64,000 bases of DNA from Frankiaceae bacterium (GCA_019239875.1 JAFAZI010000047.1:39870-103869), one strand, 5' to 3'; positions 16,288-35,651 are shown, counted from the stretch's first letter. Notes: generated by a model not told the origin, from the sequence alone. Program-made: numbers and translations.

Positions 16288-16626
16288 ATGAACGGCATCG
16301 AACCCGCAGTCACACCGAGCGGCACGGGCTGTGTCGAGTGCCTCGATGCCGGCGGCTGGTGGGTACACCTCCGCCGTTGGGCGCAATGCGGCCACATCGG
16401 CTGCTGCGACACGTCGCCGATGCAGCACGCCACCGCGCACTTCCACGAGACCGGTCACCCCATGATCCAGACCTACGAGCCCGGGGAGGACTGGTTCTGG
16501 AACTACGAGACCGACAAGGGGTTCATCGGCCCGGAGCTTGCGCCGCCCCGGCACCATCCGGTCGATCAACCCGCGCCCAGTCCGGCAGGGGCCGTGCCGG
16601 TCGACTGGCAGGACCACATCCACTAG
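16288..16626 (+). CDS. zf-UBP (ubiquitin-carboxyl-terminal-hydrolase-type zinc finger) domain protein
   Basis: TGCVECLDAGGWWVHLRRWAQCGHIGCCDTSPMQHATAHFHETGHPM is a zf-UBP signature; AAGGAG RBS 9 nt after the sirB stop. Confidence 0.65.
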   Translation: MNGIEPAVTPSGTGCVECLDAGGWWVHLRRWAQCGHIGCCDTSPMQHATAHFHETGHPMIQTYEPGEDWFWNYETDKGFIGPELAPPRHHPVDQPAPSPAGAVPVDWQDHIH

Positions 16627-17771
16627 CCGGGGCGGACGGCTCCGATGTAGTCGCTGCGGAAGGCGTACTCCTTGCGCACATAGGCACCGGTGTACGGCGC
16701 ATCGATCATCTGCCCACCGCCGACGTAGATGCCGACGTGATGGATGGTCGAGGCATCGGACGTGTTGGTTGCAAAGAAGACGAGATCACCGGGCTGCACC
16801 TGCGACTGGGCGACGTGCGTGCCCTCATTCCACTGGTCGCCGGTGTAGTGCGCGAGGTAGACACCGGCCTTGCCCCAGACGTATTGCGTCAACCCTGAGC
16901 AGTCGAAGGTGTCAGGACCGGCAGCGGCCCAGACATAGGGCTTCCCCAGCTCGAGGTAGGCCCAGTGAACGGCTGTCTGAGCCGCGGTCCCGGCTGACGG
17001 GACATGCTGCACCGGCTGTGGCGTTGGCTGCGACACGGGCTGGCTCTGCACCGCGGCGGCCGCCCGAGCCGCCGCGAGTCGCTGGGCTCGCAGCCGCGCC
17101 GCGCGCCGGGCGGCGGCGATCCTGGCCGCGCGTCGCTTCGCCGCGCGGATCAGAGCCCGCTCGCGCGCCTCGAGGTGACGCAGGATCGCCTGTTCCTTGT
17201 CAGCGGCCGCCGTGATCTGCTGCTTGTCGGCGGCGAGCTGCGCGGTCAGTCGTCGCTGCACCGCGAGTGCCGCGGTCGCGTCCGCCTGCGCCTGCTCCTC
17301 GGATCGCTGGGCCGCATCGACGCCAGCAAGGGTGCGGCTCTGCGTGGTCGCGATCGCCTCCATCGACGACGCGCGCTCCACCATCTGGCCGGACGAGCCG
17401 TCGAACAGGCTGAGCATCGAGGTGGCCGAGGTCCCCTTGTAGGCCGCCACGCTGAACTCAACGGCCGACTTCTGCAGCTTCGTGAGGCGGGACTGCGCCG
17501 ACGTGAGCCGGCCCTGCGCCGCCTGCGCCGTCTGCTGTGCGGCAGCGAGCTGGATCCGAGCGGCGTTGTAACGCTCGGCCGCGATCTCCGCCTGCGCGTT
17601 GAGCTTCGCGAGCTCCTTGTGCGCGCTGGCGATCTCGGACTTGACCACCTTCGCCTTCGCGCCGGGCGTCTTCGCAGTCGCAGCGGGGCCGACGGCAAGG
17701 ACGCCAGTGACGAGAGAGGCGGCGCTCACCGTGATGGCGATGGCACGGGGGAAGCGGACACGTCGTGCCAT
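16623..17771 (-). CDS. NlpC/P60 peptidoglycan endopeptidase with N-terminal coiled-coil (RipA-like)
   Basis: Signal peptide (MARRVRFPRAIAITVSAASLV); long Ala/Gln-rich coiled-coil; C-terminal NlpC/P60 catalytic domain (YVWAAAGPDTFDCSGLTQYVW...HHVGIYVGGGQMIDAP). ATG 17771 verified; track ORF is 17 codons longer. Confidence 0.85.
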   Translation of the reverse strand: MARRVRFPRAIAITVSAASLVTGVLAVGPAATAKTPGAKAKVVKSEIASAHKELAKLNAQAEIAAERYNAARIQLAAAQQTAQAAQGRLTSAQSRLTKLQKSAVEFSVAAYKGTSATSMLSLFDGSSGQMVERASSMEAIATTQSRTLAGVDAAQRSEEQAQADATAALAVQRRLTAQLAADKQQITAAADKEQAILRHLEARERALIRAAKRRAARIAAARRAARLRAQRLAAARAAAAVQSQPVSQPTPQPVQHVPSAGTAAQTAVHWAYLELGKPYVWAAAGPDTFDCSGLTQYVWGKAGVYLAHYTGDQWNEGTHVAQSQVQPGDLVFFATNTSDASTIHHVGIYVGGGQMIDAPYTGAYVRKEYAFRSDYIGAVRPG

Positions 17772-18056
17772 GGGGGAGCGGGGGCCTCTCTCGTGCTCAC
17801 CGCTTCCAGCGGTCAGCCACAACTGGCCGCCCGAATGGGCCGCTAGGTCACGTTGTGGTTACGCGCCACGTTATCCACAAGTGCAAGATCGACTCAAGGC
17901 ACGTCCGGCGCCGGATCCACGGCCACACGTGTCTGGCGGCGTACTGAATGGTGTCCGCCGGGTGACCAACCGGTGAAACCTGCCTTTGACCCGCGGATTC
18001 GACCCGAGCGAGGTCCTAGCGTTGACCCGAAGCCGCCCACCCGAGCAGGAGCTGTC

Positions 18057-19175
18057 GTGTCCTATCGCGGCCGCCATCGGCGGCGTCGCCCCACGGCGAT
18101 GGCAGCGCCTCCGGCGGTTCTCGCGACCGCCGCGGGCATAACGCTCGGCCTGTCGCAGGTATCAAGTGCCCACACGGGGGCAGCACGCGACGTCGCGAAC
18201 TCGCATCGACTCTCGACGGTGATGCCGGCCTTCACCGCGCATCCATCGAGCCGCCCACTCGATCGGGTCGTGACCCGAATAGCGGTAGACCTGAAAGAAA
18301 GGCACCGGCCGCAGGCGAGTGGACCCTCGGTCCGGCTGCCCCGCCACCTCGACCCCACAACCACATCGATCCCGCGCCGCGCCGTCGCCGCCTACGTGCA
18401 CGCGACCAGCCTGGCGAACGCGGCTGATCCCGCGTGCCACCTGAGCTGGCAAGTACTCGGCGGGATCGGGTTCATCGAGTCGGGGCATGCCCGCTCCGGT
18501 GGCTCCGGTGCGCCGCATTGGAACGGCGAAGCGAGCCCGCCGATCTTCGGACCGGTGCTCGACGGTTCCCGCGGCTTCGGGCGAATCGCAGACACCGACG
18601 ACGGCGCGATCGACGGCAACGCGCAGTGGGACCGCGCCGTCGGGCCGATGCAGTTCATCCCGTCGACGTGGGCACGCTACGCCGCGGACGGCAACCAGGA
18701 CGGAACCGCGGATCCACAGAACATCGACGATGCCTCGCTGGCCGCGGCCCACTACCTGTGTACGGCGCAGTCCGACCTGGGTAACGCCACCCCCTTGATC
18801 CGCGCCATCTACTCCTACAACCACTCCACGTCCTACGTACGGGCCGTCCTGACTGTCGCGGCGGGTTACGAAGGCGTCGATCCGGCCGCGCTGGGCATCA
18901 ACTCGCTGCCCAGCGACCAACCGCGGCGCCACGACCACAAGCACAGGGTCGACCACCACCGGCATCACCCAAAGGGCACGCCGTCGCCGCACCCCACGCA
19001 TCGGCACAACCCGGTTACCACGCCGACCGGCTCACCGAGGCCGACTCCGACTCCCACGCCGACCGAGTCAGAGTCGGGTACCCCGACGCCGTCGCCGACC
19101 CACCACAAGCCGAAACCGACCTCGACTCCGACGCCTGGCGGCGGACACCTGCCGCCGCCGCACCGCTCGCGCTAG
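18057..19175 (+). CDS. lytic murein transglycosylase (MltB/SLT-domain) with His- and Pro/Thr-rich C-terminal tail
   Basis: LSWQVLGGIGFIESGHARSGG...GPMQFIPSTWARYAADGNQDGTADPQNIDDASLAAAHYL; GTG 18057 preceded by RBS GGAGC; C-terminus RRHDHKHRVDHHRHHPKG..PTPTPTPTESESGTPTPSP. Track ORF is longer at the 5' end. Confidence 0.75.
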   Translation: MSYRGRHRRRRPTAMAAPPAVLATAAGITLGLSQVSSAHTGAARDVANSHRLSTVMPAFTAHPSSRPLDRVVTRIAVDLKERHRPQASGPSVRLPRHLDPTTTSIPRRAVAAYVHATSLANAADPACHLSWQVLGGIGFIESGHARSGGSGAPHWNGEASPPIFGPVLDGSRGFGRIADTDDGAIDGNAQWDRAVGPMQFIPSTWARYAADGNQDGTADPQNIDDASLAAAHYLCTAQSDLGNATPLIRAIYSYNHSTSYVRAVLTVAAGYEGVDPAALGINSLPSDQPRRHDHKHRVDHHRHHPKGTPSPHPTHRHNPVTTPTGSPRPTPTPTPTESESGTPTPSPTHHKPKPTSTPTPGGGHLPPPHRSR

Positions 19176-19185
19176 CCGGCAGGCT

Positions 19186-19911
19186 TCACGCCACGTGCGC
19201 TCCCTTGCGCCGCCTTCCCAGTCGCAGGAACAGCGCGCCGCCGCCCAACAGCACACCCGCGACGCCAATGAGCGCCGCGAGATCGAGGCCGGTCATGGGC
19301 ATCGGGCCCTTAGGGCCTGCGTGGTGGAGCCCGGCCGACGTCGGTAACACGCCTCCGGTTGGCGTCGGGCTCGAGGAAGGCGTCGCCGACTTGGTCGGGC
19401 GCGACGTCTTCGTTGCCTTCACGGAAGGGATCGTCACGACGATCGGCTGCGGGTCCTTCGTGTGCTTGACCACGACGACCGGCGCGGCAGGCGGCGCGAC
19501 CACGACGTACGGCGCGCTGCCGTGCGACGGTGCGTATCCCGAGGCCGGAGCTGGGTCGAAGTGAACGGACAGGACGTGCCGCCCTACCGACATCGATGAG
19601 GTCGACCAGCTCCACCGATACCGGTAGTTGGCTCCCGAAGCAACCTTCGTCTCGCCGTCGTACAACGTGACGCTCCCCCATGCGGCTGCCGGCTCGAGGT
19701 CGGCGATCAACGTCAAGGTGGAGTTGGGAAGGTGAGCTCGGGTCGCGGTTGACTCGAGGTCGATGTGGACAGCGGAGGACTGCAACGCTGTGGGCGAAGG
19801 GCTCGGCGAAGCGGTGGCGGCTGCGGCAGTCGTCAGCTGGCCCAGGGCACCGGCGCTCGACGCAACGATCGCCACCAGCGCCAGCGACACCGATCCCGCG
19901 GTGAGTGACAT
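19186..19911 (-). CDS. small surface protein with Ig-like domain and C-terminal sorting-signal-like tail (MPMTG + hydrophobic + RRRKG)
   Basis: ATG 19911 (RBS GGGGGA) gives a signal peptide MSLTAGSVSLALVAIVASSAGALG; C-terminus ...PTPTGGVLPTSAGLHHAGPKGPMPMTGLDLAALIGVAGVLLGGGALFLRLGRRRKGAHVA. Track ORF has a spurious 88-codon N-extension overlapping the upstream gene. Confidence 0.6.
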   Translation of the reverse strand: MSLTAGSVSLALVAIVASSAGALGQLTTAAAATASPSPSPTALQSSAVHIDLESTATRAHLPNSTLTLIADLEPAAAWGSVTLYDGETKVASGANYRYRWSWSTSSMSVGRHVLSVHFDPAPASGYAPSHGSAPYVVVAPPAAPVVVVKHTKDPQPIVVTIPSVKATKTSRPTKSATPSSSPTPTGGVLPTSAGLHHAGPKGPMPMTGLDLAALIGVAGVLLGGGALFLRLGRRRKGAHVA

Positions 19912-19982
19912 CGATCCCCCGAGACGGCGAGGCCACCGGAGCGCATGTGCTCGCCCCAGCGGCCTCGCCTTGTCCGAATCGG

Positions 19983-21170
19983 CTACTTCTTGATCTTCAC
20001 TGCCTTGGTCGTCGCCTTGCCGGACTTGTAGCCCGCCCGCTTGGCGGTGACCTTGCAGCTCAGCTTGCCGCCCTTGTCCTTCTTCGTGGGCGTGTAGGTC
20101 TTCTGCTTGGCGCCCTTGATCTTCTTGCCGTCGAGGTACCACTTGAACTTGAACTTCGTCGGCTTGGGAGACCACTTACCGGGCTTCACCTTCTCCGGCT
20201 CTCCGACCTTGTGCTTGCCTTTCAGCTTCGGATGCTTGAGGTTGTTGATCCTGGCTTTGGTCACCGTGACGGTCTTCGTCGACGAGCTCGACGAAGCGAA
20301 CGAGCTGTCAGTTGGCGTGAAGGTCGCCTTGATGACGTTCGATCCGGCTGGCAGCTTCTGGACGAGCGTTGCGACGCCGCTGCCGTTGACCGCCACGGCA
20401 GCACCCAGGTTGCCGCCGTTGTCGCTGAACTGAACGGAGCCGGCCGGGTGCGTGCCGCCGCCACCCGTCGTCGCCGTGAGCGTCACCTCGTCAGCGGTCG
20501 TCGCGGTTGTCCGGGACACGGCCAGCGCGGTCGTGGTAGCCGTCGGTGACGCACCTGGGTAGGTCTGGGTCCAGGTCCCACCGGTGACCGTGCCGTCGCC
20601 GTCCTTGGTGATGCCGCTGACCACGAAGTCCAGCGACTGATAGGTGCCGTCAGTCGACGTCTTGACGCGCAGTTGGAATGCATCGACGTAGCCAGGCGTC
20701 GACGTGTCCGTGTTGGGGAAGTCGCCCATGTACGTCGCGATGGTTTCGTCGGTGGCGCCACCGGTCACGACCGGACCGTCAGCGCTCGACACCACGGCCG
20801 GCACGCCTGCGCCTGCCGGGACCGGATAGGTCGTCGACAGGCTGATCTGCTCACCGCTCCACGCGCCTGCGGCGACACCGGTCTTGGGTGTGTAGAGATA
20901 CGCCGTGGCCTTCGTGTGCGCCGTGTCGGCGGTTGAACCGACCATGTACTTGGCGATCGGCGCGTCGGTGACGCTGCCGGTGGTGACCTGGTTACCGGAC
21001 GCGTCGTAAAGCGCGAGCGTCCCGACCTCGTTGGTGTCCTTGGTTCCGCTCGCCTCCCACGGCGGCGGTGTGTCCGCCCCGGCTTGGGAGGCGAGGATCG
21101 TTGCCGCGCCTGAGAAGAGCAGGGTCGCCGCTCCCATCGAGGCGAACGACCGAGTGAGTCGGCGATTCAT
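19983..21170 (-). CDS. secreted surface protein, paralog C (shared two-Trp N-terminal domain; Ig-like middle; Lys-rich C-terminal tail)
   Basis: Signal peptide MNRRLTRSFASMGAATLLFSGAATILASQAGA; conserved N-domain EVGTLALYDASGNQVTTGSVTD...GAWSGEQ...FQLRVKT...GGTWTQTYPG; C-terminus KHPKLKGKHKVGEPEKVKPGKWSPKPTKFKFKWYLDGKKIKGAKQK... Confidence 0.65.
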   Translation of the reverse strand: MNRRLTRSFASMGAATLLFSGAATILASQAGADTPPPWEASGTKDTNEVGTLALYDASGNQVTTGSVTDAPIAKYMVGSTADTAHTKATAYLYTPKTGVAAGAWSGEQISLSTTYPVPAGAGVPAVVSSADGPVVTGGATDETIATYMGDFPNTDTSTPGYVDAFQLRVKTSTDGTYQSLDFVVSGITKDGDGTVTGGTWTQTYPGASPTATTTALAVSRTTATTADEVTLTATTGGGGTHPAGSVQFSDNGGNLGAAVAVNGSGVATLVQKLPAGSNVIKATFTPTDSSFASSSSSTKTVTVTKARINNLKHPKLKGKHKVGEPEKVKPGKWSPKPTKFKFKWYLDGKKIKGAKQKTYTPTKKDKGGKLSCKVTAKRAGYKSGKATTKAVKIKK

Positions 21171-21294
21171 CGGATCCCTTTCCGGGTGATGTCGAGGGGA
21201 CGATCCGCCCCGACGTTAGAGCGATCAGCAGGCATGTCCTGCCGGACCGTCGATGTGTTCATGTCGGCTTCATGCGGCGTGCACGACGTGGTCG

Positions 21295-22161
21295 TCACGA
21301 CCGCCGCCGGAGTGCAAGACCGCCGCCACCGAGGGCGAGCATGGCGATGATGAGGACGACCGTCAGATTGCGGCCGGTGTGCGAGGACGAGGCACTGGCG
21401 TCACTGACCGGCCGAGCTCCAGCCGGCGCCTGCGGCGAGTCAGCAGTGGACGAGCTGTCTCCGTTCCCAGAGCTGGCGGTCGACCCACCAGATGTGGAGG
21501 GTCGCGGCGAGCCGGCCGCGACCGCCGCGTCGTACTTTCGTTGCGCCTGGCGGAACTTCTTCTTCGGAAGGGTGGCGGTCTCGATGGATACCGCCGATCC
21601 GGAACCCTTGCAGTCATCCGCACCGGGATGCAGCTGGGTCCACCTGCCGTCGCTGACCGAGAAGTACGACGCGTTGTACGTCGATCGGAGGGCGGGGGCG
21701 CCTGGCGCGCCCAGATACATCCGGACCTGGAAGACGCCTTCGGCCGCGAGCGGGAAGTCCTTCAGATATGTCGCAAATGACTCGTCGAGGATCGTACCCG
21801 CGGCCATCGGATGGTCAGCATCCGAGAACCGCGCCGAGCCCGTGAGCTGCTGCGGGCTCCACTCCGGCGGCGGCACGTTGGGGCGCGGTTGGAACGCGTA
21901 CAACGTCGCGGTCCCACCGACCCGATAGCCCTTTGGTGCGGACGCCGCGCCGATCGCGCGGTAGATCGCCGGCTTGGTCGCCAACGAACCGCTGGTGACC
22001 TGATTGCCCTGGCCGTCACAGAGAGTGAGCGGGCCGGCGACTTGCGGGTCGGGCGGCGGCGTCACGCCGGCAATCGCTGGCGCCGCCAACCCCACCGCAA
22101 TCCCCACACTGACCGCGACAGTCGCAGCTCCCGATGAGAGGCCTCGGACCAACAACCTCAC
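21295..22161 (-). CDS. secreted surface protein, paralog B (two-Trp N-terminal domain; C-terminal TM anchor + RRRS)
   Basis: GTG 22161 (RBS AAGGAGA, overlaps upstream stop as GTGA); signal peptide VRLLVRGLSSGAATVAVSVGIAVGLAAPAIA; AGPLTLCDGQGNQVTSGSLATKP...EWSPQQ...FQVRMYL...DGRWTQLHPG; C-terminus SSSHTGRNLTVVLIIAMLALGGGGLALRRRS. Confidence 0.6.
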   Translation of the reverse strand: MRLLVRGLSSGAATVAVSVGIAVGLAAPAIAGVTPPPDPQVAGPLTLCDGQGNQVTSGSLATKPAIYRAIGAASAPKGYRVGGTATLYAFQPRPNVPPPEWSPQQLTGSARFSDADHPMAAGTILDESFATYLKDFPLAAEGVFQVRMYLGAPGAPALRSTYNASYFSVSDGRWTQLHPGADDCKGSGSAVSIETATLPKKKFRQAQRKYDAAVAAGSPRPSTSGGSTASSGNGDSSSTADSPQAPAGARPVSDASASSSHTGRNLTVVLIIAMLALGGGGLALRRRS

Positions 22162-23243
22162 GCGGGATCTCCTTGCGGCTGGGTCGCGGGTGGCGGGTCG
22201 ATCCGGTGCCGCCCCGCCTGGCGGCGATGTTTCCGCCACCAGTACCTGAAAGCCAACCCGACGATGAGGAGCAGGAGGATAAGGAGCAAGAGCCAAGGGA
22301 TGGCCAAGAAATGAACGCTGGATGAAGTGGGCTTCAAGCCGGTGTCGACCGCTCCCTGCAACCCTTCCGGGTTGACCGTGACCTTGGCGTTCATCAGCAG
22401 CTCTGGGTACACGTTCGGCACGGTGACGACAACGGGATACGACGCACCAGGCAGCAACGGGGGAATGCTCGCGACCGCCCCGCTGCTGACGTCCTCCCCG
22501 AACAGTCCGTGGACTGACACGGATTGCGGACCGCCGAAGACGACGTTCCCGCCGTTGTGGACCACGTAGCTGACCTTCACGTCACCGCGCGCGAACGGAT
22601 TGACCGGTCCGTCGTACGACGCCGTCAAGTTCCGGATGTCGACTCGAGGGTGGATCGGACCGGTCACGCGGAACACCGCGCGGACGGCGATGCGCTGCAG
22701 GAACTTCTCGTTCTGCGTGCTGCCCTGCCCGAACCGGCCTTTGACCTTGCCGGCGAGCGAGACCACGACGCCTCCGACATGGTCGCCCGGTGGCGCGTTC
22801 ATCGGGATGTGGACGTGTACCGGCAGGACGTTGACCGACCGCGGCTGCAGCGTGAGCACCCCACGACCGTGCGGGGTCCCCACCGACATCCAGGCACCGG
22901 CGTCCCGTCGCTTGACGTCGGGCAGCGGGAAGGAGATCGCGCCTCTGGTGTCAGGGACCGCGTCGACGGTGTACGTCGTCACCCGCAGCGGACGGTGGGA
23001 GTAGTTGGTGATCGCGACGTGGTCGGTCGTCTGGCCGCCGGGCGTGGTGTTGAACGTCAGGTACGGCCGGCCGTCGGGCCCCTTCGCACTCGACGGTGCG
23101 GCGCCGAAGGTCGCGTTCTTCACCTTGGTCGGTGACGAAGAAAAACGATGCCCCACGGGTCCGGCCGACGCTGCCGTCAGGCCTCCCATGAGCATCGTCA
23201 GTACGACGAGCGCAACCGATCGTCTGTAGTGCTTCAGTCCCAT
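22158..23243 (-). CDS. cell-surface protein with signal peptide and C-terminal TM anchor (possible CscA/DUF916-DUF3324-like)
   Basis: 361 aa; MGLKHYRRSVALVVLTMLMGGLTAASA signal; C-terminus LAIPWLLLLILLLLIVGLAFRYWWRKHRRQ. Size, architecture and neighbourhood (WxL-like paralogs, sorting-signal protein) resemble Gram-positive csc clusters. The family name is inferred, not demonstrated. Confidence 0.4.
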   Translation of the reverse strand: MGLKHYRRSVALVVLTMLMGGLTAASAGPVGHRFSSSPTKVKNATFGAAPSSAKGPDGRPYLTFNTTPGGQTTDHVAITNYSHRPLRVTTYTVDAVPDTRGAISFPLPDVKRRDAGAWMSVGTPHGRGVLTLQPRSVNVLPVHVHIPMNAPPGDHVGGVVVSLAGKVKGRFGQGSTQNEKFLQRIAVRAVFRVTGPIHPRVDIRNLTASYDGPVNPFARGDVKVSYVVHNGGNVVFGGPQSVSVHGLFGEDVSSGAVASIPPLLPGASYPVVVTVPNVYPELLMNAKVTVNPEGLQGAVDTGLKPTSSSVHFLAIPWLLLLILLLLIVGLAFRYWWRKHRRQAGRHRIDPPPATQPQGDPA

Positions 23244-23323
23244 CTACTCCCCTGAGAACAGCCCGGTGGGCCGGGACTGATGCCCCGGCCCACCGGTGTG
23301 AACTATCTAGTGCGCGACCACGA

Positions 23324-25186
23324 TCAGTTCCCGTCTGAGACGGTGAAGACGATCGTGCCCTTGTAGGTGCCAGCAGCCGTCGACGTCGGTGCGTTGAGCG
23401 TCAGCTTGCCGTCGTAGGTAGCGGTACCGACGCCGTTCGCCGAACCCTGCAGCACGTTGTGGGCTCCGTTGCCGAGACCCGCGTTGCCGGTGTCGGACGG
23501 TGACACACCAGCAGCGGCCGTGTTGTCGGTCGCCGTGATCGAGCCAGGCTCGCCGGTGTAGCTGTTGACCGGAGTCGACCCGTCGGGGCAAGTGCCGGTC
23601 GACGGCGCGAGCGCCGTCAGGCCGACGTTCTCACCGTTGATCGACGTGTACGCACCGCTCGGCGGCGTCGGGCCACCAGACTGGAGCGACAGCGCACTGG
23701 CCGCAGCCTGCGCGATGAAGCCCGTGTTGACACCACTCGTGTCGGTCACCGTGATGCACTTGAACGTCTTGTTCCCGGTCCACAGGGTGCCGGTTCCGTT
23801 CAATGCGAGGTTGCCCAGGTCGAGCGGGTTCGCGTCCGTGTACGGGGTGCTGATGATCAGCGTTCCGGTCGGGATGCTTGCCGTGATCGTCTGGGTGTCC
23901 GTGCACCCCGGACCGCCCGCCGCCGCCTCGCTGGTGCAGACACCACCGGCGAGGACCGTGGTGAACGAGTTCGGCGCAGAGGCCGAGGCCTCGTAGTTCG
24001 CCGGGTTCGTCGGAGTGAAGTGAGCAACCACGGTGTGCGAACCGGCCGAGAAGCCACCGGTGATGGTCGCCGAGTAGTGACCGCTGCCGTCAACAGCAAC
24101 ACTCGAGCCGCCGTCGACTGGGAGTGCGGAACCCTTGTCCGTGAACGACACCGAGCCGTTCGGCGTGCCCGACCCTGAGGTCACGGCACCCGAGAGCGTT
24201 GCGGTTCCACCGGTCTGGGTGTTACCCGTGATCGTCAATGAGGTGTTGGTCGGGGTGGCCGGCGGGTTCACCGTCTGAGAGAGGGCGTTCGAGGTCGAGC
24301 CCGTGTAGTACGGGAAGACGGTGTTCGCGCTCGGGGTGTAGACGGCGGTGATGCTGTACGGCGAGCCCGACGCGGTCAGAGCTGACGTTGAGACCGACGC
24401 GTGGCCGGTGCCGTTCAGCGACTGTGCCGCACCAAGGTTGGCAGCGCCGTTCTTGAACTGCACGGTGCCGTCGGTCGGGTTGGTGCCGTCCGCGCCCGTC
24501 ACCTGCGTGGTGAAGGTCACCGAGTTGCCCTGGTTGGACGGGTTCGCCGACGAGGTCGGGGTCGAGGTGGTGGTCGCGATCGGCGAGCCGTAAACCTCGG
24601 TCCAGTCACCGCCGGTGACTGCGCCGCTGCCGTCCTTGGTGATGTTGCTGACCATGATGTCCGCGGCCCAGTACGTCCCCGTCGTGCCGGTCTTGACGCG
24701 GATCTGGTAGAGCCCGGCGTACCCGTCAGTGGTGCTGGTGTCGGTGTTCGGGAAGTCGCCGATGTACGTGGACAGCGGCAGGTCGGATCCAGCCCCGGTG
24801 ACGACCGGGTGGGTGCCCAGACCGTTCACCGGCGCGGGGGCGCTGGTGTTCGGGTAAGTGGTCGAGGCCGCTGCCTGCTCACCGCCCCAGGCACCTGGCG
24901 CGACACCAATCTGCGGCGTGTAGAAGAACTGCGTGGCCTTGGTGTGGCCGGCGTCAGTAGTAGAGGCCGCGTAGTAGGCCGCGAGCGGTCCGTCGGTGAC
25001 GTGACCGTGCGTGACTTGCTGGCCGCTCGAGTTGTAGAGGGTCAGCGTTCCGACCTGATTCGAGTCGGGGGTCGACTGGTACGGTGGCGTCGCTGCGTTG
25101 GCAGCACCCGCTCCCACCAGCAGCAACGCCCCGGTCGTGGCCAGGGTTGCCGCCCCGGCTGTGACCGCTGCGAAGCGGATCTTCAT
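23324..25186 (-). CDS. secreted surface protein, paralog A (two-Trp N-terminal domain + long Thr/Gly/Ser-rich Ig-like repeats)
   Basis: 620 aa; strong RBS AAGGGAGAA before ATG 25186; signal MKIRFAAVTAGAATLATTGALLLVGAGAANA; QVGTLTLYNSSGQQVTHGHVTD...GAWGGEQ...YQIRVKT...GGDWTEVY; C-terminal ...AGTYKGTIVFTVSDGN. Confidence 0.65.
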   Translation of the reverse strand: MKIRFAAVTAGAATLATTGALLLVGAGAANAATPPYQSTPDSNQVGTLTLYNSSGQQVTHGHVTDGPLAAYYAASTTDAGHTKATQFFYTPQIGVAPGAWGGEQAAASTTYPNTSAPAPVNGLGTHPVVTGAGSDLPLSTYIGDFPNTDTSTTDGYAGLYQIRVKTGTTGTYWAADIMVSNITKDGSGAVTGGDWTEVYGSPIATTTSTPTSSANPSNQGNSVTFTTQVTGADGTNPTDGTVQFKNGAANLGAAQSLNGTGHASVSTSALTASGSPYSITAVYTPSANTVFPYYTGSTSNALSQTVNPPATPTNTSLTITGNTQTGGTATLSGAVTSGSGTPNGSVSFTDKGSALPVDGGSSVAVDGSGHYSATITGGFSAGSHTVVAHFTPTNPANYEASASAPNSFTTVLAGGVCTSEAAAGGPGCTDTQTITASIPTGTLIISTPYTDANPLDLGNLALNGTGTLWTGNKTFKCITVTDTSGVNTGFIAQAAASALSLQSGGPTPPSGAYTSINGENVGLTALAPSTGTCPDGSTPVNSYTGEPGSITATDNTAAAGVSPSDTGNAGLGNGAHNVLQGSANGVGTATYDGKLTLNAPTSTAAGTYKGTIVFTVSDGN

Positions 25187-25265
25187 GAGTTCTCCCTTAT
25201 TTGTGATGGTCCGATTTGGAGCAGGGCGTTGCTGAGGAAGTCGGATGTTGCGTGGCGTGGTCGCT

Positions 25266-25304
25266 CCGGGGGTGGGCAGCCCTAGCTAGCTGGCCCACCC
25301 CCGG
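25266..25304 (-). terminator. putative terminator hairpin between PstS-like gene and surface-protein cluster
   Basis: CCGGGGGTGGGC-agccctagctagctg-GCCCACCCCCGG: perfect 12-bp GC-rich stem, 18 nt downstream of the minus-strand stop at 25322; no U-tract. Confidence 0.4.
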
Positions 25305-25321
25305 AGCCCCCCGGATTCGAA

Positions 25322-26500
25322 TCAGCAGCTGGTCGGGTTCAAGCCACAGTCCTTGTACGCGGGGTCCGCACCTGCCGCCGCGACGAGCGCTTGGCCCGGA
25401 GCGGTCTTGAAGTACGGGTTCGCGCCCGAGAACAAGGTCTGGATCATGTTCTTCGTGCCGCCCGGCTCGAAGATGGTCGACGAGGACAGGTCGCTCTGCT
25501 TGAACACCACGAACAGGCCGCGCGTGTCGATGTACGCGGATCCACCGGCCGGCGGAGCGCCGCTGAGGATCTTGATGCCGGCGGCCAACGCTGCGCCGCC
25601 GGGGTACGGCGTCGCAGGGTTGTGGAAGTAGCTGCTGTCGTAGAGGTTGAGCCGGCTTCCGGAGAACGGCGCGATGGCGTCCGCCGGCGTACCGAAGTTG
25701 CCACTCGTGATTGCGGACGGGTCGTTCTCCTCAGCGGTCTGCACGCAGCTGCCGAGGGTGATCGTGCCGCCGCCGGCGGTCTGCAGGTCGGTGATGAAGG
25801 TGCTGCGCGTACCCGAACCCGACTGCGGAATGATCGGCACGATGTTCGTGGCCGACGTGCCGCCGATGTTGGAGTCGTTCCACTTCCGGTAGCCCGCGTC
25901 GCACTGGTAGACGTGGAAGAGCTGCGCTGCCGTCAGCGGTACCGCGTTCGACCCCGTCTTGAGCGCTGCGAGGCGAAGGTCCTCGGTGCCGAGCCGCACG
26001 ACATGAAGCCCACCGAAACCAGCCGTGCCGGCGGTGGTCTCCTCGGCCGCAGTTGGGAGCCGCGAAGCGCGGACGAAGTTGATCTGTCCATCAGGGAACG
26101 CGGCGGTCGGCGCGTCATTCAGCAGCGCCGCGATGCCCGCACCGGAGCCGTTGGGACGCTGCACCGGGTTGGTGCCGGACCGCAGCACGATCGTGGGGTT
26201 GAGAGGTGCGAGGGAGGCGTTAGTGCTGCCGTTCAGGTAGCCCGCCCGAGCGTTGGCATCCGGCGTGGCATCGAAGCTCACCAGCTTGTTGATGGCGCCG
26301 CCGCCATTGAAGCCGAGGTCGCCCGTAGCGTCACCGTCGGCGCCGAAGTCGACGAGGTACTGCACCGTGTCGGACCCGACGCCCACTGCGTCGGCGCCCG
26401 AAGGTGCGTAGTCCGCGTGGGCCGGGGAGGCGAGTGAGACGCTCACCGCTCCCGCGACCGCGACTGCGAGACCGACTCGCAGCGAATTCTTCATGCGCAT
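25322..26500 (-). CDS. secreted PstS-family phosphate-binding protein (second copy)
   Basis: Signal peptide MRMKNSLRVGLAVAVAGAVSVSLASPAHA; type-2 periplasmic-binding fold with the phosphate-binding SGSGTR motif (IIPQSGSGTRSTFITDL). Confidence 0.65.
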   Translation of the reverse strand: MRMKNSLRVGLAVAVAGAVSVSLASPAHADYAPSGADAVGVGSDTVQYLVDFGADGDATGDLGFNGGGAINKLVSFDATPDANARAGYLNGSTNASLAPLNPTIVLRSGTNPVQRPNGSGAGIAALLNDAPTAAFPDGQINFVRASRLPTAAEETTAGTAGFGGLHVVRLGTEDLRLAALKTGSNAVPLTAAQLFHVYQCDAGYRKWNDSNIGGTSATNIVPIIPQSGSGTRSTFITDLQTAGGGTITLGSCVQTAEENDPSAITSGNFGTPADAIAPFSGSRLNLYDSSYFHNPATPYPGGAALAAGIKILSGAPPAGGSAYIDTRGLFVVFKQSDLSSSTIFEPGGTKNMIQTLFSGANPYFKTAPGQALVAAAGADPAYKDCGLNPTSC

Positions 26501-26565
26501 GTTTCTGCCTTTCGGAAGTCTTGGTGTGCGCCTGGCGAAACGACACTCGCCGACCGAAACCTCCG

Positions 26566-26587
26566 GCTAGTGCGTAGCGAATGAACC
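26566..26587 (-). promoter_or_regulatory. candidate PHO box (PhoP direct repeats GTTCACCGGGG/GTTCATTCGCT)
   Basis: Minus strand reads ...GACAAGTTCACCGGGGGTTCATTCGCTACGC... about 66-88 nt upstream of the PstS-like ATG: two 11-nt direct-repeat units with the actinobacterial PhoP core GTTCAyy. Confidence 0.5.
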
Positions 26588-26674
26588 CCCGGTGAACTTG
26601 TCGTGGCGGACACATCGAAACCGGACAAGGACGTCGAACCGGCGGACCGCTCCCGCACGCCCGGAAGGACGGCG

Positions 26675-27658
26675 TCACATCAGATTTGGGAGCAGCCTGA
26701 ACACGTTGCTGCTGACCACCCAGACCAACGCGAGAATCACGGGCGCTCCCGCAAGCCACGCCTGCCACAGACCCCACCGGCTGCTGGCCCAGACCGTTGC
26801 CCCGCCCACGATCAGCAACGCCTGAAGCCAGAGCACGAGCGACTCGAGACCGGATGTGTCGGAGTGCATCGCGGTGGCGGATGGCGCGATCACCGTCGGC
26901 CGGCCGGCTGGCGCGAGCAACGCCTTCTCCTTGAGCGCCGCATCCACGAAGACTTCGTGACTCGGTGCCCACCCGGCCCGCCAGCCGGAACCTTGGGATG
27001 AGACCAGGGTCAAGCGGCCGCCGCCATCCGGCACCGGCGGCGGCAGGGGGTCCCCGTTGTGCCTGACGTTTATGACGCTGTAGTGGAAGGTGCCCTGCTG
27101 CGTAGTCGCCGTGATGATGTCGCCCGGATGCAACGATCCGATGTCCTTGAAGGGTGCACCGAAGCTCACGCTTCGGCCCATGAGAACCGACCACCCAAGC
27201 TGACCCGGCAGCGGAGTGTTCTGCTGATGACCGGGACCGTCCCGAAGCACGGTCGACGTCGTGCCTTCCACGACGACCGCCCGGTTGAGCCCAGCCGCAG
27301 GCATGCTGATCACAGCTAATGGCGTGCCCGGTTTGATAGCACCCCCGAGCGGCGCGACCTCCTGCGCGAGCGAGAAGCGCAGCTGCGAGTAGAGCCTGTG
27401 CTGGGCGCTGCGCTCCTGAATACCGCTGAGGAACACGCCGTAGATCAGCAGCCAGACCGCGGTCACGCTCAGCATGAACAGCACGCTGACCGTGAGCGAA
27501 ACACCCGGCGAGGCCGGCGGGAGCGGTGGCGCCTCGCGGGCGGCGGCGAACCGAGTCCGGACCCGTGCGAGTCGCGACGCCGCGGCGGGCTCCGCTCGCC
27601 GCGCGCCGGACCGGGCAGGGGCCGGTCGACCAGGTTTTGCGAGGTCCGTAGCGGTCAT
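26675..27658 (-). CDS. sortase-fold membrane protein lacking catalytic Cys and His (class-E-sortase-like pseudo-sortase)
   Basis: N-terminal TM (VSLTVSVLFMLSVTAVWLLIYGVFL). The region IKPGTPLAVISMPAAGLNRAVVVEGTTSTVLRDGPGHQQNTPLPGQLGWSVLMGRSVSFGAPFKDIGSLHPGDIITATTQQGTFHYSV...RLTLVSSQGSG is collinear with the sortase-E consensus (IPxIGv..VveGt...LxkGpGHypxTxlPGqxGNsviaGHRTTyGAPFxxLdxLxxGDxI...TyxY...LTLvTCHP). The GHRTT His is replaced by Arg and the TLxTC Cys by Ser; the protein contains no Cys at all. Two extra C-terminal TM segments. ATG overlaps the upstream stop (ATGA). Confidence 0.6.
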   Translation of the reverse strand: MTATDLAKPGRPAPARSGARRAEPAAASRLARVRTRFAAAREAPPLPPASPGVSLTVSVLFMLSVTAVWLLIYGVFLSGIQERSAQHRLYSQLRFSLAQEVAPLGGAIKPGTPLAVISMPAAGLNRAVVVEGTTSTVLRDGPGHQQNTPLPGQLGWSVLMGRSVSFGAPFKDIGSLHPGDIITATTQQGTFHYSVINVRHNGDPLPPPVPDGGGRLTLVSSQGSGWRAGWAPSHEVFVDAALKEKALLAPAGRPTVIAPSATAMHSDTSGLESLVLWLQALLIVGGATVWASSRWGLWQAWLAGAPVILALVWVVSSNVFRLLPNLM

Positions 27659-30381
27659 GTCCTGCGTCGCTGGCGCACGTACCTGGTGATCGCCGGCGCC
27701 AACAAGCCGCTGAGGAGCGCAAGAGCGAGGAGGATGGGGAGCGCGACGCCGGCAAGCTTCGAGGAGCTCGCGACCGTGTTGCCCAGCGACGCCGGCGCTG
27801 GGGAGGCGACAGCAGGAGGGCTTGCTGGATCGCTGGGGCCTGGGGTGGCGGCGCCGTCGACTGCCGGCACAGTCGGAGCAGCCGACGACGGGGGCGACGA
27901 AGAGCTGCCCGTTCCATCTGGACCAGTGCCACCGTTGTTGCCGTCGTTCCCCTGGTTGTCGGCCTTCGACGGGACGAGCGATGGCACGTCACCACGCTGA
28001 GCTCGGACCGCGCTCGCCGCGCGCGTCGTGTACGCGACGAGCCGACCCAGTCCGTTCGACTTCGTCATCGGCAGATACCCAGGTGGCAAATTTCCTGGGT
28101 CGAAGCCCTGCGTCTGGCCGGGGCCGGCCGCGAAGTCGAGCAGCTTTGAGTAGTCCGTAGCGGCCGAGCTCGCAAGACCTTTGGTCGCAACGGTGGTGTA
28201 GACGATCATCGTGCCTGGATATGCGCCCTTCGCGGATGGTGCCTTGCGGAGCCGCTTCGAGTCGACGGGCCAGGTACCCGTCGTCATGTCCGGCTTCGCC
28301 GTGTCGGCAGCCGCCCGCATCGACGCCATCGTCGGCCGGACGAACGTGCGTCCGGCCAGGCTCGAGAAGTCGGACTTCGCGGCCGAGGTGGTCTGTGCCT
28401 CGAGTGACGCCATGCTGAGCCGATAGCGCTCAGCATCAGGAATGGTCGTCACGCCGAGCATGAACCGCGAGCCCAGCTGCTGGCGTCCGATGGCCACCAG
28501 CCGTTCACCCGAGCTCTGTCCCTGCAGCGGTTGGTAGCAGACGGTCTGCGAGTTCGCGATGGCGAACTGCATGGCCAGTGCGATCTGGCTCAGTCGCTGG
28601 ACCGGCGCTGCCACCAGCGGCAGGTATGGGACAGGGGTGTTGTAGAGGCAGTCGTTGAGTCCCGGCTGGTAGATGTCGGACGGAATGTATGTGTCGAGCA
28701 GCGGCCACGTGTTCACGGGGAGCTGGATGCGCTTGTAGGCCTTGTTGACCACCATCCCCCACGGGTCAGGTTTGCCGTCCAGCCATGCGCGAGCCTCGGG
28801 GTCGGCGTTGATGTAGGAGGTGAGGGCGTACATCACGTCTGACTGGCTGGAGAGGTTGAGGATCGTCGCACCGACTTGCGAGTCGGTGGTGACGCCGGGA
28901 TTGAGCGCCTCGAACTCTGGGTCGCGAGTGATGTTCAGCGGGTTCTTGGCAAGGGCCTTGTCCTTGTTCTGGATCTCGCTGATGGCCGGGTAGGACTCAG
29001 TCATCAGCTTCGCCAGCAACCGCGGATCGAGCTGGAGCTTGGTGACGGGGTCACCGTGAGCGTCGTCGATGTCGAAGGTGATCGCGAACCCGCTGACAGC
29101 GGTCGGCGCGTTGACCGTCGGGAACGGGAATCCCCCGGCCTGCGGCTGACTGGTGAAGGCTGCGTCGATCGAGCCCGACATCAGCTGAGTCCGAGCCTGC
29201 GGCTCGCCCACCTGAACGTGCTTGAAGTTGAACAGCGACTTCGTCAGGCAGAACTTCGGGGACCACTGTTGTGTGGCTTGCGTCATCAGCTCGGAGCCGT
29301 ACACGGGAACGGCCGCGCCCGCACCCACCACGTCGCAGACACTCGGCGTCTGCGCGAAGCTGAGTGGGACGGACAGCCGGTTCCGCCAGTTCGACGCGGC
29401 CCACCACAGCGCACCGCTCACCGTGGCGTCCTCGTGACCGTTCCCGTCACCAACCTCACCCGGTGCGAAGTGACCCTTCTTCACGCACTCGGCGGTGGCT
29501 TGCTCGATGTCGGGCGCTGGCGGCTTGTCGTCGTCCGGCAGCCCTTCGGCTGCGGGATCGCAGCTGATGCCCATGATCGGCACGGCGACCAGGCTGCACA
29601 CAACTCTTGCCGAGCAGCCCAATGACGTGTTCGTGTCCGCGGTCCACATGTCGAACTTCGTCGAACCCTGGCCGTTGGTCTGCGTGATGCCGTAGGTCTC
29701 GTTGCTCGGCATCGCCTGGTTGCTGTCACCGGTTGCCTCGGGCGCGGTGCCCGCGCAGCCGTTCGGCCCGCCGTAGTACTTGGTACCGCCAAGCGCGATG
29801 AAGGGGACCCAGTACTCCTCAGGCGCCGCGCCGAAACACTCCTCGGGCCTTGTTGTAGGCGCTCCGTACAGGGCGGATCGCTGTGCGGCCGAGGCGTACT
29901 TGTCCAGCCGCCACGGCGGGTAGGCCTGGTCGTTGCTCGCGTAGTTGGAATCGGACTGGAACCGCTCGGTGGTCGCGTTGGTCCAACAGGTCTGCGGCGA
30001 GAGTCGGTCGGCCTTGGGAGCGCGCTTCGAATCCAGGCCACGACACTCGAGCAGCACCATCGGATATTCCTCCTGCAGACCCAGGGAGGAGTTGATGTTT
30101 CCGACCAGACCGCCCGTCGGGTGCGCGCCGCTCCAGGACACGTCCACCTCTTGCCGATCGCGCAATCCCACCGTCTGAGCGACATGCAAGGAGACCTTGC
30201 GCTTGTCGACGACCGAGGTCGTGCCGTCCTTGGTTACGGTGCGGACAGCTGTGTGCTTGACGGTGACAGGCTTCAGATCGGCGTGCGATCGCCCGGGCGT
30301 TCCCGACGCGACACCTGTCGCAGCGGCGCCGACCGCCACCGCCGTCGCGGTGATAGCGGCCCAACGTTTTGTCAGTTTCAT
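27655..30381 (-). CDS. 909-aa secreted orphan protein, Cys-rich N-terminal region, C-terminal Ser/Pro-rich linker + TM anchor
   Basis: ATG 30381 overlaps the pstS stop (ATGA); signal peptide MKLTKRWAAITATAVAVGAAATGVASG; many paired Cys; C-terminus ...SSSPPSSAAPTVPAVDGAATPGPSDPASPPAVASPAPASLGNTVASSSKLAGVALPILLALALLSGLLAPAITRYVRQRRRT. No recognisable catalytic motif. Track ORF carries a 139-codon Arg-rich artefactual extension. Confidence 0.55.
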   Translation of the reverse strand: MKLTKRWAAITATAVAVGAAATGVASGTPGRSHADLKPVTVKHTAVRTVTKDGTTSVVDKRKVSLHVAQTVGLRDRQEVDVSWSGAHPTGGLVGNINSSLGLQEEYPMVLLECRGLDSKRAPKADRLSPQTCWTNATTERFQSDSNYASNDQAYPPWRLDKYASAAQRSALYGAPTTRPEECFGAAPEEYWVPFIALGGTKYYGGPNGCAGTAPEATGDSNQAMPSNETYGITQTNGQGSTKFDMWTADTNTSLGCSARVVCSLVAVPIMGISCDPAAEGLPDDDKPPAPDIEQATAECVKKGHFAPGEVGDGNGHEDATVSGALWWAASNWRNRLSVPLSFAQTPSVCDVVGAGAAVPVYGSELMTQATQQWSPKFCLTKSLFNFKHVQVGEPQARTQLMSGSIDAAFTSQPQAGGFPFPTVNAPTAVSGFAITFDIDDAHGDPVTKLQLDPRLLAKLMTESYPAISEIQNKDKALAKNPLNITRDPEFEALNPGVTTDSQVGATILNLSSQSDVMYALTSYINADPEARAWLDGKPDPWGMVVNKAYKRIQLPVNTWPLLDTYIPSDIYQPGLNDCLYNTPVPYLPLVAAPVQRLSQIALAMQFAIANSQTVCYQPLQGQSSGERLVAIGRQQLGSRFMLGVTTIPDAERYRLSMASLEAQTTSAAKSDFSSLAGRTFVRPTMASMRAAADTAKPDMTTGTWPVDSKRLRKAPSAKGAYPGTMIVYTTVATKGLASSAATDYSKLLDFAAGPGQTQGFDPGNLPPGYLPMTKSNGLGRLVAYTTRAASAVRAQRGDVPSLVPSKADNQGNDGNNGGTGPDGTGSSSSPPSSAAPTVPAVDGAATPGPSDPASPPAVASPAPASLGNTVASSSKLAGVALPILLALALLSGLLAPAITRYVRQRRRT

Positions 30382-32057: not shown

Positions 32058-33169
32058 CGCTTGGTCTTCTCCCGAGAGAGCAGTCGAGCCGCGATGAACA
32101 GGACGACGACGAGCACGAGCAGGACGCTGGCAGCGCCAAAACCTCGAGTGATGTACGTCGGTTCACCGCTGCGGACAGAGCTGAAGATGAACAACGGAAG
32201 CGAGTTCATCGGATTCTTGAGGGGGTTCGTGTTGAAGAAGGTGGAGGCGCCCGAGGTGATCAGAACGGGTGCGGTTTCACCGACAGCTCGGGCGAGGCCG
32301 AGGATCACTGCAGTCGCGAGTCCGGACCGCGCGGTCGGAAGCACGACGCGCCAGACCGTTGCCCATCGGCTGGCGCCAAGCGCAAGACTCGCTTCACGGA
32401 GACCGCCCGCCACCACCCGCAGCGAGACATCCGCCGAGCGGGCGATGATCGGCAGCATCATGATCGACAGCGCCATCGCCGCGCAGAAGCCGTTGCGCTG
32501 AAAGCCGAGCCCGAGCTGCAACACCGTGTAGATGAACAGCCCAGCGAGGATGTCCGGCAGCGCTGTCATCGCCTCCACGACGGTTCGCACCACCGTCGAG
32601 AACCGGCCACCGATCTCCACCATGTAGATCGCGGTTCCAATGCCGAGTGGCAAAGAGACTGCGGTGGCGATCGCAAGCTCGATCAGCGACCCCGCCACCG
32701 CATGCGTGATGCCACCGTGGGTGAGGGTCTCCGTCGGACCGACCCCCGCCATGTCATGGGTCCAGAAGTTGCCGTGGATCCATGCACCCTCGCCCTTGAC
32801 GAGGGTGTAGATCGCTACCGAGAGGACCGCGAAGAACACCACGCCTGCTGCGCCTGCGACGGCGGCGCCCCAGAGCCGGTCGACCACCACCGGGCGAGGG
32901 TTGCCGAAGCTGCTGACCAGGCCGTACACAGCAAGGAACGCGGCGTACCAGCAGAAGAGGAAGCCAACCTTCCCGGACAGCGGCAGCAGCTGGAAGTACA
33001 CGAGCCAGGTGAGCGCCAGCGAGCCGACGAAAGCGGCAACCAGTGATGCGATGTCGTCCTGCGTCAACCGGCCGACGGTGCGGGGCTGGTCGTCTGCACC
33101 ATCCGGATGGCTCGGGTTGACGCCCGTGCCCGATGTACCCGGCATCGGCGGCGGCGAGAGCAGTGTCAT
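32054..33169 (-). CDS. pstA: phosphate ABC transporter permease PstA
   Basis: 371 aa, 6 TM; ABC permease EAA-like region (LGASRWATVWRVVLPTARSGLATAVILGLARAVGETAPVL). Confidence 0.85.
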   Translation of the reverse strand: MTLLSPPPMPGTSGTGVNPSHPDGADDQPRTVGRLTQDDIASLVAAFVGSLALTWLVYFQLLPLSGKVGFLFCWYAAFLAVYGLVSSFGNPRPVVVDRLWGAAVAGAAGVVFFAVLSVAIYTLVKGEGAWIHGNFWTHDMAGVGPTETLTHGGITHAVAGSLIELAIATAVSLPLGIGTAIYMVEIGGRFSTVVRTVVEAMTALPDILAGLFIYTVLQLGLGFQRNGFCAAMALSIMMLPIIARSADVSLRVVAGGLREASLALGASRWATVWRVVLPTARSGLATAVILGLARAVGETAPVLITSGASTFFNTNPLKNPMNSLPLFIFSSVRSGEPTYITRGFGAASVLLVLVVVLFIAARLLSREKTKR

Positions 33170-35533: not shown

Positions 35534-35618
35534 CCGTCCCCCTCCTCGTCCTCCCCACCGCACGAGACGTTCGTCGGCTCCGTCAACGACAACTGATCTA
35601 CGACGCCACGGAGCGCAC

Positions 35619-35651
35619 GCAGGCCGAACGGCAGATGAGCGAAAGATGAAC
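35619..35651 (-). promoter_or_regulatory. candidate PHO box (three 11-nt direct-repeat units) upstream of the DUF1508-pstBCAS operon
   Basis: Minus strand TTGTTGTTCATCTTTC-GCTCATCTGCC-GTTCGGCCTGC, about 86 nt upstream of GTG 35533, in the divergent intergenic region shared with the alpha/beta hydrolase gene. Confidence 0.4.

Follow-up and report, generated by a model that had tools for sequence, protein, structure and literature searches.

A probable actinobacterial version of the WxL/WxLIP cell-surface module beside Pst-type importer genes in a Frankiaceae genome

The csc/WxL clusters of the Lactobacillales and Bacillales, encoding CscA-D (Siezen 2006, PMC1534035; Hassan & Williamson, PMC9772566, PMC10599100), are the nearest known system to the locus described here; in the literature WxL/WxLIP clusters are a feature of those two orders, tied to host adhesion and virulence. 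In the WxL literature that we searched, more than 91% of WxL proteins are from Firmicutes, and Actinobacteria are not discussed. Here we analyse a window, i.e. the whole 64,000-nucleotide (nt) stretch of DNA under study, from a metagenome-assembled genome (MAG) of a Frankiaceae bacterium with a GC content of ~67%, in which a cluster of genes, A to E, lies entirely on the minus strand. The products probably make up a cell-surface module of the WxL/WxLIP (csc) type, in an actinobacterial form. The identities and architectures assigned to them are held with high confidence, and a function in phosphate relay is put forward with low confidence.

The initial annotation of this DNA had proposed five surface-protein genes, and our analysis of open reading frames (ORFs) finds all five on the minus strand, at the coordinates given. 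The window matches the MAG GCA_019243655.1, labelled 'Frankiaceae bacterium', and an ENA assembly. Public gene calls match the A, D, B and C ORFs, including the same start for B, and a protein identical to A is annotated on two public contigs; GC content at third codon positions (GC3) is 0.80-0.86 for all five genes. The genes and their domains are as follows.

Gene A, 23324-25186, minus strand: 620 amino acids (aa); signal peptide, two-Trp head domain, two Big_3_5 immunoglobulin (Ig)-like domains and C-terminal WxL-like domain; a large WxL-type, CscC-like protein
Head domain (N-dom) of A, 24575-25093, minus strand: residues 32-204; beta-sandwich with conserved W100, R163 and W195
WxL-like domain of A, 23327-23998, minus strand: residues 397-620, with F490 and F612 at the WxL Trp positions
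Gene D, 22158-23243, minus strand: 361 aa; signal peptide, DUF916/WxLIP_PGBD domain, second beta domain, transmembrane helix and basic tail; WxLIP/CscA homologue
DUF916/WxLIP_PGBD domain of D, 22761-23066, minus strand: residues 60-161
Transmembrane helix of D, about 22236-22301, minus strand
Gene B, 21295-22161, minus strand: 288 aa; signal peptide, divergent head, Ser/Ala/Gly-rich linker, C-terminal transmembrane helix and RRRS
Head domain of B, 21619-22062, minus strand
Gene C, 19983-21170, minus strand: 395 aa; signal peptide, head, Big_3_5 domain and Lys-rich basic Ig-like domain
Domains of C, minus strand: head, 20544-21071; Big_3_5, 20259-20522; Lys-rich basic Ig-like, 19986-20255
Gene E, 19186 to ~19911, minus strand: ~241 aa; signal peptide, Ig-like domain, Pro/Thr linker and sorting-signal-like C terminus

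Homologous loci were sampled by fetching 80 regions around relatives of D from reference genomes, with 82 entries compared in total. Relatives of the C-terminal region (tail) of A show WxL-looking motifs (D-x-R..G..(G/P)W-T and ...G.Y.GTITFTV), and a hidden Markov model (HMM) of the tail, iterated over the ORFs of these loci, converged at 81 matches in 74 of the 82, with 69 of the 81 lying directly upstream of D and 72 at the C terminus of their protein. A search for the Pfam WxL family, PF13731, had been suggested initially; it returned nothing for A itself, but 40 of 67 sequences of the A-tail family match at an expectation value (E) of ≤0.01 (best E 9.4e-9), PF13731 being the sole Pfam family matched. 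Seven of the ten D-adjacent neighbours tested match it at E≤0.011 (group range E 0.011 to 6.7e-8), the Kitasatospora neighbour at 33.2 bits, over the 25-bit cut-off, and that of Actinocrinis at 24.4 bits. The iterative HMM unites the cassette-type tails, i.e. those from loci with the A-D-B-C gene order, with this PF13731-matching group, and the two align with an hhalign probability of 98.6% (E 6.5e-16, 146 columns), both motif regions being in register. The proximal motif of A reads G-F-I-A at the site of GW or PW in its relatives, and the distal one, Y-KGT-I-V-F-T-V-SDG-N, retains the spacing, with Trp changed to Phe, Leu to Val and no terminal Pro. The position of the tail, at the very C terminus of a protein with a signal peptide, fits that of WxL domains as the last ~120-190 residues of secreted proteins. 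An AlphaFold 2 model of the tail has a mean confidence (pLDDT) of 78.5; searches of PDB sequences with the A-tail and broad WxL-like profiles found no solved WxL domain. These sequence comparisons place the last ~200 aa of A in the WxL superfamily.

The case for D is of a similar kind. D scores 25.9 bits (E 1.1e-5) against the DUF916 family PF06030, below the cut-off of 27.3 bits, yet 18 of its 21 relatives match this family (best E 9.2e-11); relatives at 56-61% identity carry precomputed PF06030 matches, and public names among the relatives include 'DUF916' and 'WxL interacting protein linking bacterial and host surfaces'. When compared with the PDB, the D-family profile finds EfmWxLIP1 (9i1y_A, 9i25_C) at E 1.1e-7 over 147 positions; the conserved N-terminal NQIDKxxxYFDLK strand aligns to GPDGRPYLTFN in D, which retains no more than the aromatic pair, YF in the motif, and the overall pattern. 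D has an N-terminal hydrophobic leader and a transmembrane segment, IPWLLLLILLLLIVGLAFRYWW, followed by RKHRR, and its 361 aa lie inside the published WxLIP range of 320-380 aa (PMC10599100), so that signal peptide, C-terminal transmembrane helix and length all agree with the WxLIP architecture. On this family-level evidence D is a membrane-anchored WxLIP/CscA/DUF916 homologue. The resemblance to CscA noted initially is supported at the family level as regards DUF916, but not as regards DUF3324; more generally, the initial annotation had tied its proposal to matches in the WxL, DUF916 and DUF3324 families, and the first two are found at the family level while the third is not. The csc resemblance of the cluster as a whole is supported: D, a WxLIP homologue, has the WxL-type gene A immediately upstream, as in csc/WxL clusters.

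Conservation extends to the gene order. Two or more head-domain genes are present in 27 of the 82 entries, including the window and its own two contigs, and the order A-D-B-C recurs in about 24 other loci from Actinomycetes and Acidimicrobiia, with hosts assigned to Frankiaceae, Mycobacteriales, Streptosporangiaceae, Pseudonocardiales, Streptomycetales, Jatrophihabitans and Acidimicrobiia. In these cassette loci the A-type proteins end in a WxL-like domain, and D and B are usually translationally coupled. In the window the D stop and the GTG start of B overlap as GTGA, with an AAGGAGA Shine-Dalgarno sequence 6 nt upstream, and 15 of 26 related loci have an equivalent in-frame 4-nt ATGA or GTGA overlap, which bears out the coupling of B to D proposed initially.

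A, B and C share an N-terminal head of ~170-190 aa, the paralogy of which, already proposed, is supported by BLASTP (A/C, 48% identity, E 7e-61; C/B, 32%, E 4e-18; A/B, 28%, E 4e-12). Every one of the sequence blocks listed for it in the initial annotation (GTLxLYDxSGNQVT, YQxRVKT, AWGGEQ and GxWTE/QxY/HPG) was found, and the two Trp residues are conserved as claimed among 226 non-identical family sequences (W100, 88%; W195, 95%), as are R163 (99%) and G61 (98%). The AlphaFold model of the head is a ten-strand beta-sandwich (pLDDT 89). The isolated domain has no Pfam match even at E≤10 and no NCBIfam model, no fold match was found in the PDB, and a search of PDB sequences with the head profile recovered no solved WxL domain; hhalign gives a probability of 0.1% against D. 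A relationship with HtaA, considered because HtaA takes the position of the head in Micromonospora WxL proteins, was rejected (hhalign 0.3%), as was the 'Ang-2' N-terminal-His metal domain (PMC12537917, near DUF916 genes), which is inapplicable because the mature head begins ATPPYQ. A word-indexed homologue search returned only 10-11 relatives each for the head and the A tail, falsely implying a rare family. Exhaustive searching with a profile gave 1,202 representative clusters at E≤1e-3, a figure that is an upper bound because the search profile took in part of the neighbouring Ig region, and 322 at E≤1e-30. In the best 145 matches the head is N-terminal, with Big_3_5, fn3 or Ig_2-type stalks, and the C terminus is a WxL-like domain in 25, a transmembrane helix in 22 plain proteins and 3 others with head repeats, and a sorting signal in 6, while 89 have none of these; head-domain proteins reach ~1,200 aa. 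The head is hence a distinct, unannotated beta-sandwich domain family, separate from WxL.

The three paralogues differ in what follows the head. A has its stalk (Big_3_5, Pfam E 6e-17) and WxL-like domain, and B-type proteins close with a linker rich in Ser, Ala and Gly, followed by a membrane helix and a group of Arg residues. As pointed out in the initial annotation, C has a Lys-rich tail: its last 90 aa include 29 Lys but just 2 Arg and 4 acidic residues, where the Lys background is 3.0%; the use of Lys instead of Arg in a genome of 67% GC suggests selection for lysine itself. This region has weak Pfam matches to Ig_2/C2-set (E~1e-3), and the C-type proteins of Frankiales-like loci have a terminal basic Ig-like domain (isoelectric point about 10-11, 10-32% Lys), of which the window is the extreme case, with the signature G.WSPK...Y.YQWLLNGK.IKGATKSSL.L...D.GK.ISCRVTA. 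We therefore read the 'tail' as a folded domain rather than a disordered one. In Acidimicrobiia the C-types exceed 1,000 aa and have other repeats. Neither B nor C has a WxL-like domain, no sorting signal is present in A, B or C, and no enzymatic domain was found in A-E with Pfam or NCBIfam.

The small CscD-like protein proposed initially, E, is less typical. Its C terminus (...PMPMTG-LDLAALIGVAGVLLGGGALFLRLG-RRRK) does have the expected order of motif, hydrophobic segment and basic tail, but the motif, MPMTG, is non-canonical compared with LPXTG/LAXTG, the match to the NCBIfam LAVTG-type model (E 0.029) is under its cut-off, and no E orthologue is present in related cassette loci, among which L011 alone has any other sorting-signal protein. 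E matches Big_7 (Pfam, E 1.6e-4), and its Ig domain resembles parts of the C-type proteins of loci L050 and L021. We place its start at the ATG at 19911, which is preceded by GGGGGA, because GC3 falls from 0.83 in the E frame to 0.51 in the upstream part of the long ORF, which overlaps C. Public annotation instead places an 89-aa ORF antisense to E, at 19205-19564 (plus strand), both frames having a GC3 of about 0.84; of the two, only the minus-strand E product has a signal peptide, a homologous Ig-like domain and an anchor-like C terminus, and the public plus-strand call is probably wrong.

Upstream of the cassette lies a second set of genes and elements that bears on its possible role.

Hairpin, 25263-25307, minus strand: between the stop of the PBP_like_2 gene and the start of A; ~19-bp GC stem, no U-tract
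PBP_like_2 secreted protein, 25322-26500, minus strand: 392 aa; divergent PstS-family protein (PF12849, E 2e-12); first gene of the PBP-A-D-B-C series
PHO-box-like direct repeat GTTCACCggggGTTCATT, 26580-26597, minus strand: about 80-97 nt upstream of the PBP_like_2 start codon
Sortase homologue, 26675-27658, minus strand: 327 aa; without the catalytic Cys and Arg; extra C-terminal membrane segment ending LLPNLM
Secreted protein of 909 aa with C-terminal membrane anchor, 27655-30384, minus strand: its start (MKLTKRW...) overlaps the stop codon of the preceding gene
PstS-like protein, 30378-32057, minus strand: ~180-aa C-terminal extension and membrane helix, not a lipoprotein anchor; TIGR00975 at 172.9 bits against a cut-off of 205
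PstA, 32054-33169, minus strand: above the NCBIfam cut-off
PstC, 33177-34196, minus strand: above the NCBIfam cut-off
PstB, 34212-35114, minus strand: 333.5 bits, slightly below the NCBIfam cut-off

The PstS-like gene is the fourth in a pstB-pstC-pstA-pstS' string, and no recent paralogy was found among the three PstS-like proteins. For the 909-aa protein no Pfam or NCBIfam family and no PDB sequence match was found, a faint PstS-like stretch excepted; in many loci its gene is kept beside those of the PstS-like protein and the sortase homologue. The sortase homologue retains its His (GPGH), has TLVSS instead of TLxTC and lacks the Arg; it scores 64.7 bits against the class E sortase model (cut-off 160). 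Cys and Arg are likewise lost in 15 of 15 complete cluster-linked orthologues (TLVSS/TLVTS/TLITA), whereas true sortases at other fetched loci retain both (TLTTC, QRLVV). The PBP_like_2 orthologue is present in 20 of the 27 cassette entries, immediately upstream of A wherever coordinates were inspected. The block of pst genes, anchored protein and sortase homologue is upstream of the cassette in the window and in loci L003, L008, L014, L017 and L022, and downstream of it in L020, L021, L023, L025, L050 and L051. Since both orders occur, block and cassette stay adjacent despite circular permutation.

A terminator-like hairpin had been described initially as separating the cluster from the pst operon. 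The structure itself is real (folding z = -3.08; none of 200 shuffles folds as well), but the description is misleading, as the PBP_like_2 gene upstream of it travels with A-D-B-C. Hairpins of 13-17 bp with other sequences occupy the same position in L018, L020, L021, L023 and L050, and none is present there in L003, L004, L007, L008, L014 or L022; a within-unit attenuator or transcript-stabilising element is more likely than an operon boundary. A scan of 18900-26700 for intrinsic terminators and sigma-70 promoters gave nothing useful.

The repeat GTTCACCggggGTTCATT matches the Streptomyces PHO box of 11-nt-spaced GTTCACC units (PMC2691820). Similar repeats (≤3 mismatches) occur upstream of 6 of 14 PBP_like_2 orthologues, whereas 600 random windows yielded 25 (p about 2e-5 by Fisher's test), an enrichment weakened by the mutual relatedness of the loci, which are not independent samples, and by a mostly coding background. 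A weaker PHO-box-like repeat, TTCATCT/CTCATCT, lies at 35634-35651 (minus strand), upstream of the pst operon. Directly upstream of pstB is a small ORF (35130-35540, minus strand) with two repeats of a W-x-W-R-L...G pattern, which may resemble YegP/DUF1508-type proteins. Immediately downstream of the cassette are genes for an NlpC/P60 peptidoglycan endopeptidase with a long coiled-coil N terminus (16623-17822, minus strand) and an SLT-type lytic transglycosylase whose tail is rich in His, Pro and Thr (17853-19175, plus strand).

By analogy with the enterococcal WxLIP/WxL model, in the accounts of PMC10599100 and of Galloway-Pena 2015 as cited in PMC5817068, D may sit in the membrane, reach into the wall, and there bind and stabilise the WxL-like domain of A on peptidoglycan. 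B, produced in step with D via the overlapping codons, would present its head on a flexible membrane tether, and C, which has neither a covalent nor a membrane anchor, is probably held electrostatically by its basic domain on anionic wall polymers. From this inferred anchoring of A, B and C, the same head would be displayed at three depths of the envelope, where the heads may bind a common ligand, or one another, so as to form a wall-spanning complex. The linkage to pst genes and the PHO-box-like repeat suggest that such a complex is produced when phosphate is limiting and acts in the service of the neighbouring Pst-type importer. In its fullest form, which we consider doubtful, the proposal is of a wall-spanning capture apparatus, induced by phosphate starvation and known so far only from uncultured Actinomycetota. 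On a WxLIP/WxL scaffold, the previously undescribed head would be presented next to the membrane by B, within the wall by A and on the surface by C; the heads would bind a phosphate-bearing substrate, or the secreted PstS-like protein, and pass it inward to a dedicated Pst-type importer, and the dead sortase would act as an assembly factor.

Several observations weigh against the interpretation of the region as a WxL/WxLIP module with such a role. Neither A nor D alone reaches a curated Pfam threshold, and the last ~200 aa of A have no Pfam or NCBIfam match at all, including to PF13731 (curated threshold 25 bits). WxL domains are defined by two Trp-x-Leu motifs, the distal one being YxxxΦTWxLxxxP (PMC5817068), and both eponymous Trp residues are absent from A, replaced by F490 and F612. 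D has a second beta-rich region of the right size for a DUF3324 domain, but none of its 21 relatives matches that family (DUF3324/WxLIP_HBD, PF11797). A WxL cluster in the sense of Hassan et al. 2023 (PMC10599100) has, within four genes, one or more WxLIPs together with two or more WxL proteins, whereas the window has one WxLIP-like and one WxL-like gene. The PHO-box motif, with a consensus taken from Streptomyces, occurs 10 times in the window against 6.2 expected, i.e. not above chance. Finally, the cassette loci (L003-L025, L031, L050, L051 and L065) are all MAGs, with 0 cultured isolates among the 80 fetched loci, so that no organism is available for experiments.

The alternatives account for the data less well. 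The initial annotation had placed the WxL resemblance in the shared two-Trp head, which would make A, B and C three WxL proteins with the head as their peptidoglycan-binding domain. The size of the head (~170 aa), the spacing of its Trp residues (about 95 residues apart) and the adjoining DUF916 gene are in keeping with this. However, the head and WxL-like profiles align with an hhalign probability of 0.2%, PF13731 is not matched even at E≤10, the head is N-terminal where WxL domains are C-terminal (PMC5817068), its Trp contexts (GxWSGE, GxWT) are unlike D-x-RG...GW-x-L or YxxxΦTWxL, and A has a separate WxL-like domain in its C-terminal ~200 aa, a region not flagged initially. We consider this reading hardly credible. 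An unlikely, though better, explanation is that the products are lineage-specific adhesins with Ig-like stalks, the csc/WxL likeness being superficial and the pst genes coincidental. The many stalks (Big_3_5, fn3, Ig_2-like), transmembrane or LPXTG ends and lengths of up to ~1,200 aa are typical of adhesin architecture, and A-E are without enzymatic domains. Against this stand the family-level homology of D and the A tail to WxLIP and WxL, and the retention of gene order, D-B coupling and PstS-like/pst adjacency, even when permuted, across Actinomycetes and Acidimicrobiia.

The sortase homologue in the gene string raises a further possibility, that the head proteins are subunits of a pilus- or fibre-like polymer assembled by that protein, with E or the Lys-rich tail of C (29 Lys to 2 Arg) providing linkage sites. 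We regard this as very unlikely, given that Cys and Arg are missing from all 15 complete cluster-associated sortase orthologues while true sortases elsewhere keep them, that A, B and C are without sorting signals, that E is not conserved, and that pilin fold matches are weak and generic.

The interpretation as an actinobacterial WxL/WxLIP module thus remains the preferred one. The presence of DUF916 in Actinomycetota is not itself new, because databases already label some D relatives as such; what is new is the Trp-less WxL-like subtype, the unannotated head family with its three-anchor paralogue set, and a conserved linkage to genes for a Pst-type importer and for a sortase homologue that lacks the catalytic cysteine. 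A divergent, Trp-less WxL form is widespread in soil and freshwater Actinomycetota and has been missed by motif- and threshold-based searches. The three differently anchored copies of the head are a concrete target for structural and binding studies, and the Pst-type linkage, cysteine-less sortase homologue and PHO-box-like site make csc/WxL function testable as a nutrient-acquisition hypothesis. A nutrient-uptake role of csc clusters was proposed for carbohydrates by Siezen et al. 2006 (PMC1534035), and remains a proposal; if true, the capture apparatus outlined above would give WxL/csc clusters a concrete physiological role in nutrient uptake.

Comparison with the csc/WxL clusters reveals both shared and distinct features. 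In both, a large, secreted, WxL-tailed protein adjoins a ~360-aa protein composed of signal peptide, DUF916, second beta domain and transmembrane helix, all products are predicted surface proteins, and a small protein with a sorting signal, or in the window a sorting-signal-like C terminus, is nearby. The present cassette differs in being in Actinomycetota, in having one WxL-like protein and no small WxL protein, in the Phe residues of A in place of both Trp, in its undetectable DUF3324 domain, in its extra paralogues B and C, which combine the head of A with other anchors, and in its linkage to a Pst-type ATP-binding cassette (ABC) importer and Cys-less sortase homologue. With EfmWxLIP1 of Enterococcus faecium (PDB 9i1y, 9i25), D shares length and C-terminal membrane helix, and the D-family profile covers chain residues 4-150, i.e. 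the N-terminal strand and beta-sandwich; D is, however, very divergent, its second domain has no significant match, and it is coupled to a head protein rather than being located beside a small WxL.

Closer relatives are the DUF916 and WxL pairs of Micromonospora, Kitasatospora, Streptomyces, Catenulispora and Actinocrinis, which have the same D family with a WxL-like tail (...AG.Y.ATLTLTL) directly upstream of D, but differ in their heads (HtaA, GH43 plus ricin, or Ig), in having no B/C paralogues and, in some cases, in the presence of true sortases and LPXTG proteins. Haem-binding HtaA heads on WxL-like domains were observed at 11 loci, including L024, L036 and the two Micromonospora loci tested, and in Kitasatospora (L077) the WxL-like domain is fused to GH43 and a ricin lectin. 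In cultured Actinomycetota the domain also occurs alone, as a 'small WxL' of ~210-230 aa (loci noted include L052, L046 and L044), and the tails from cultured Actinomycetota all end ...G.Y.ATLTLTL, Leu replacing the distal Trp.

With respect to the PstSCAB system of Streptomyces and its PhoP-bound PHO boxes (PMC2691820), the window is similar in that PstC and PstA pass NCBIfam cut-offs, PstB and the PstS-like protein fall slightly short of theirs, and 11-nt-spaced GTTCACC/GTTCATT units lie upstream of the cassette. It is distinguished by a PstS-like protein with a ~180-aa extension and membrane anchor, and by a gene string in which two more PBP-like or unknown anchored proteins and a WxL-type cassette are embedded.

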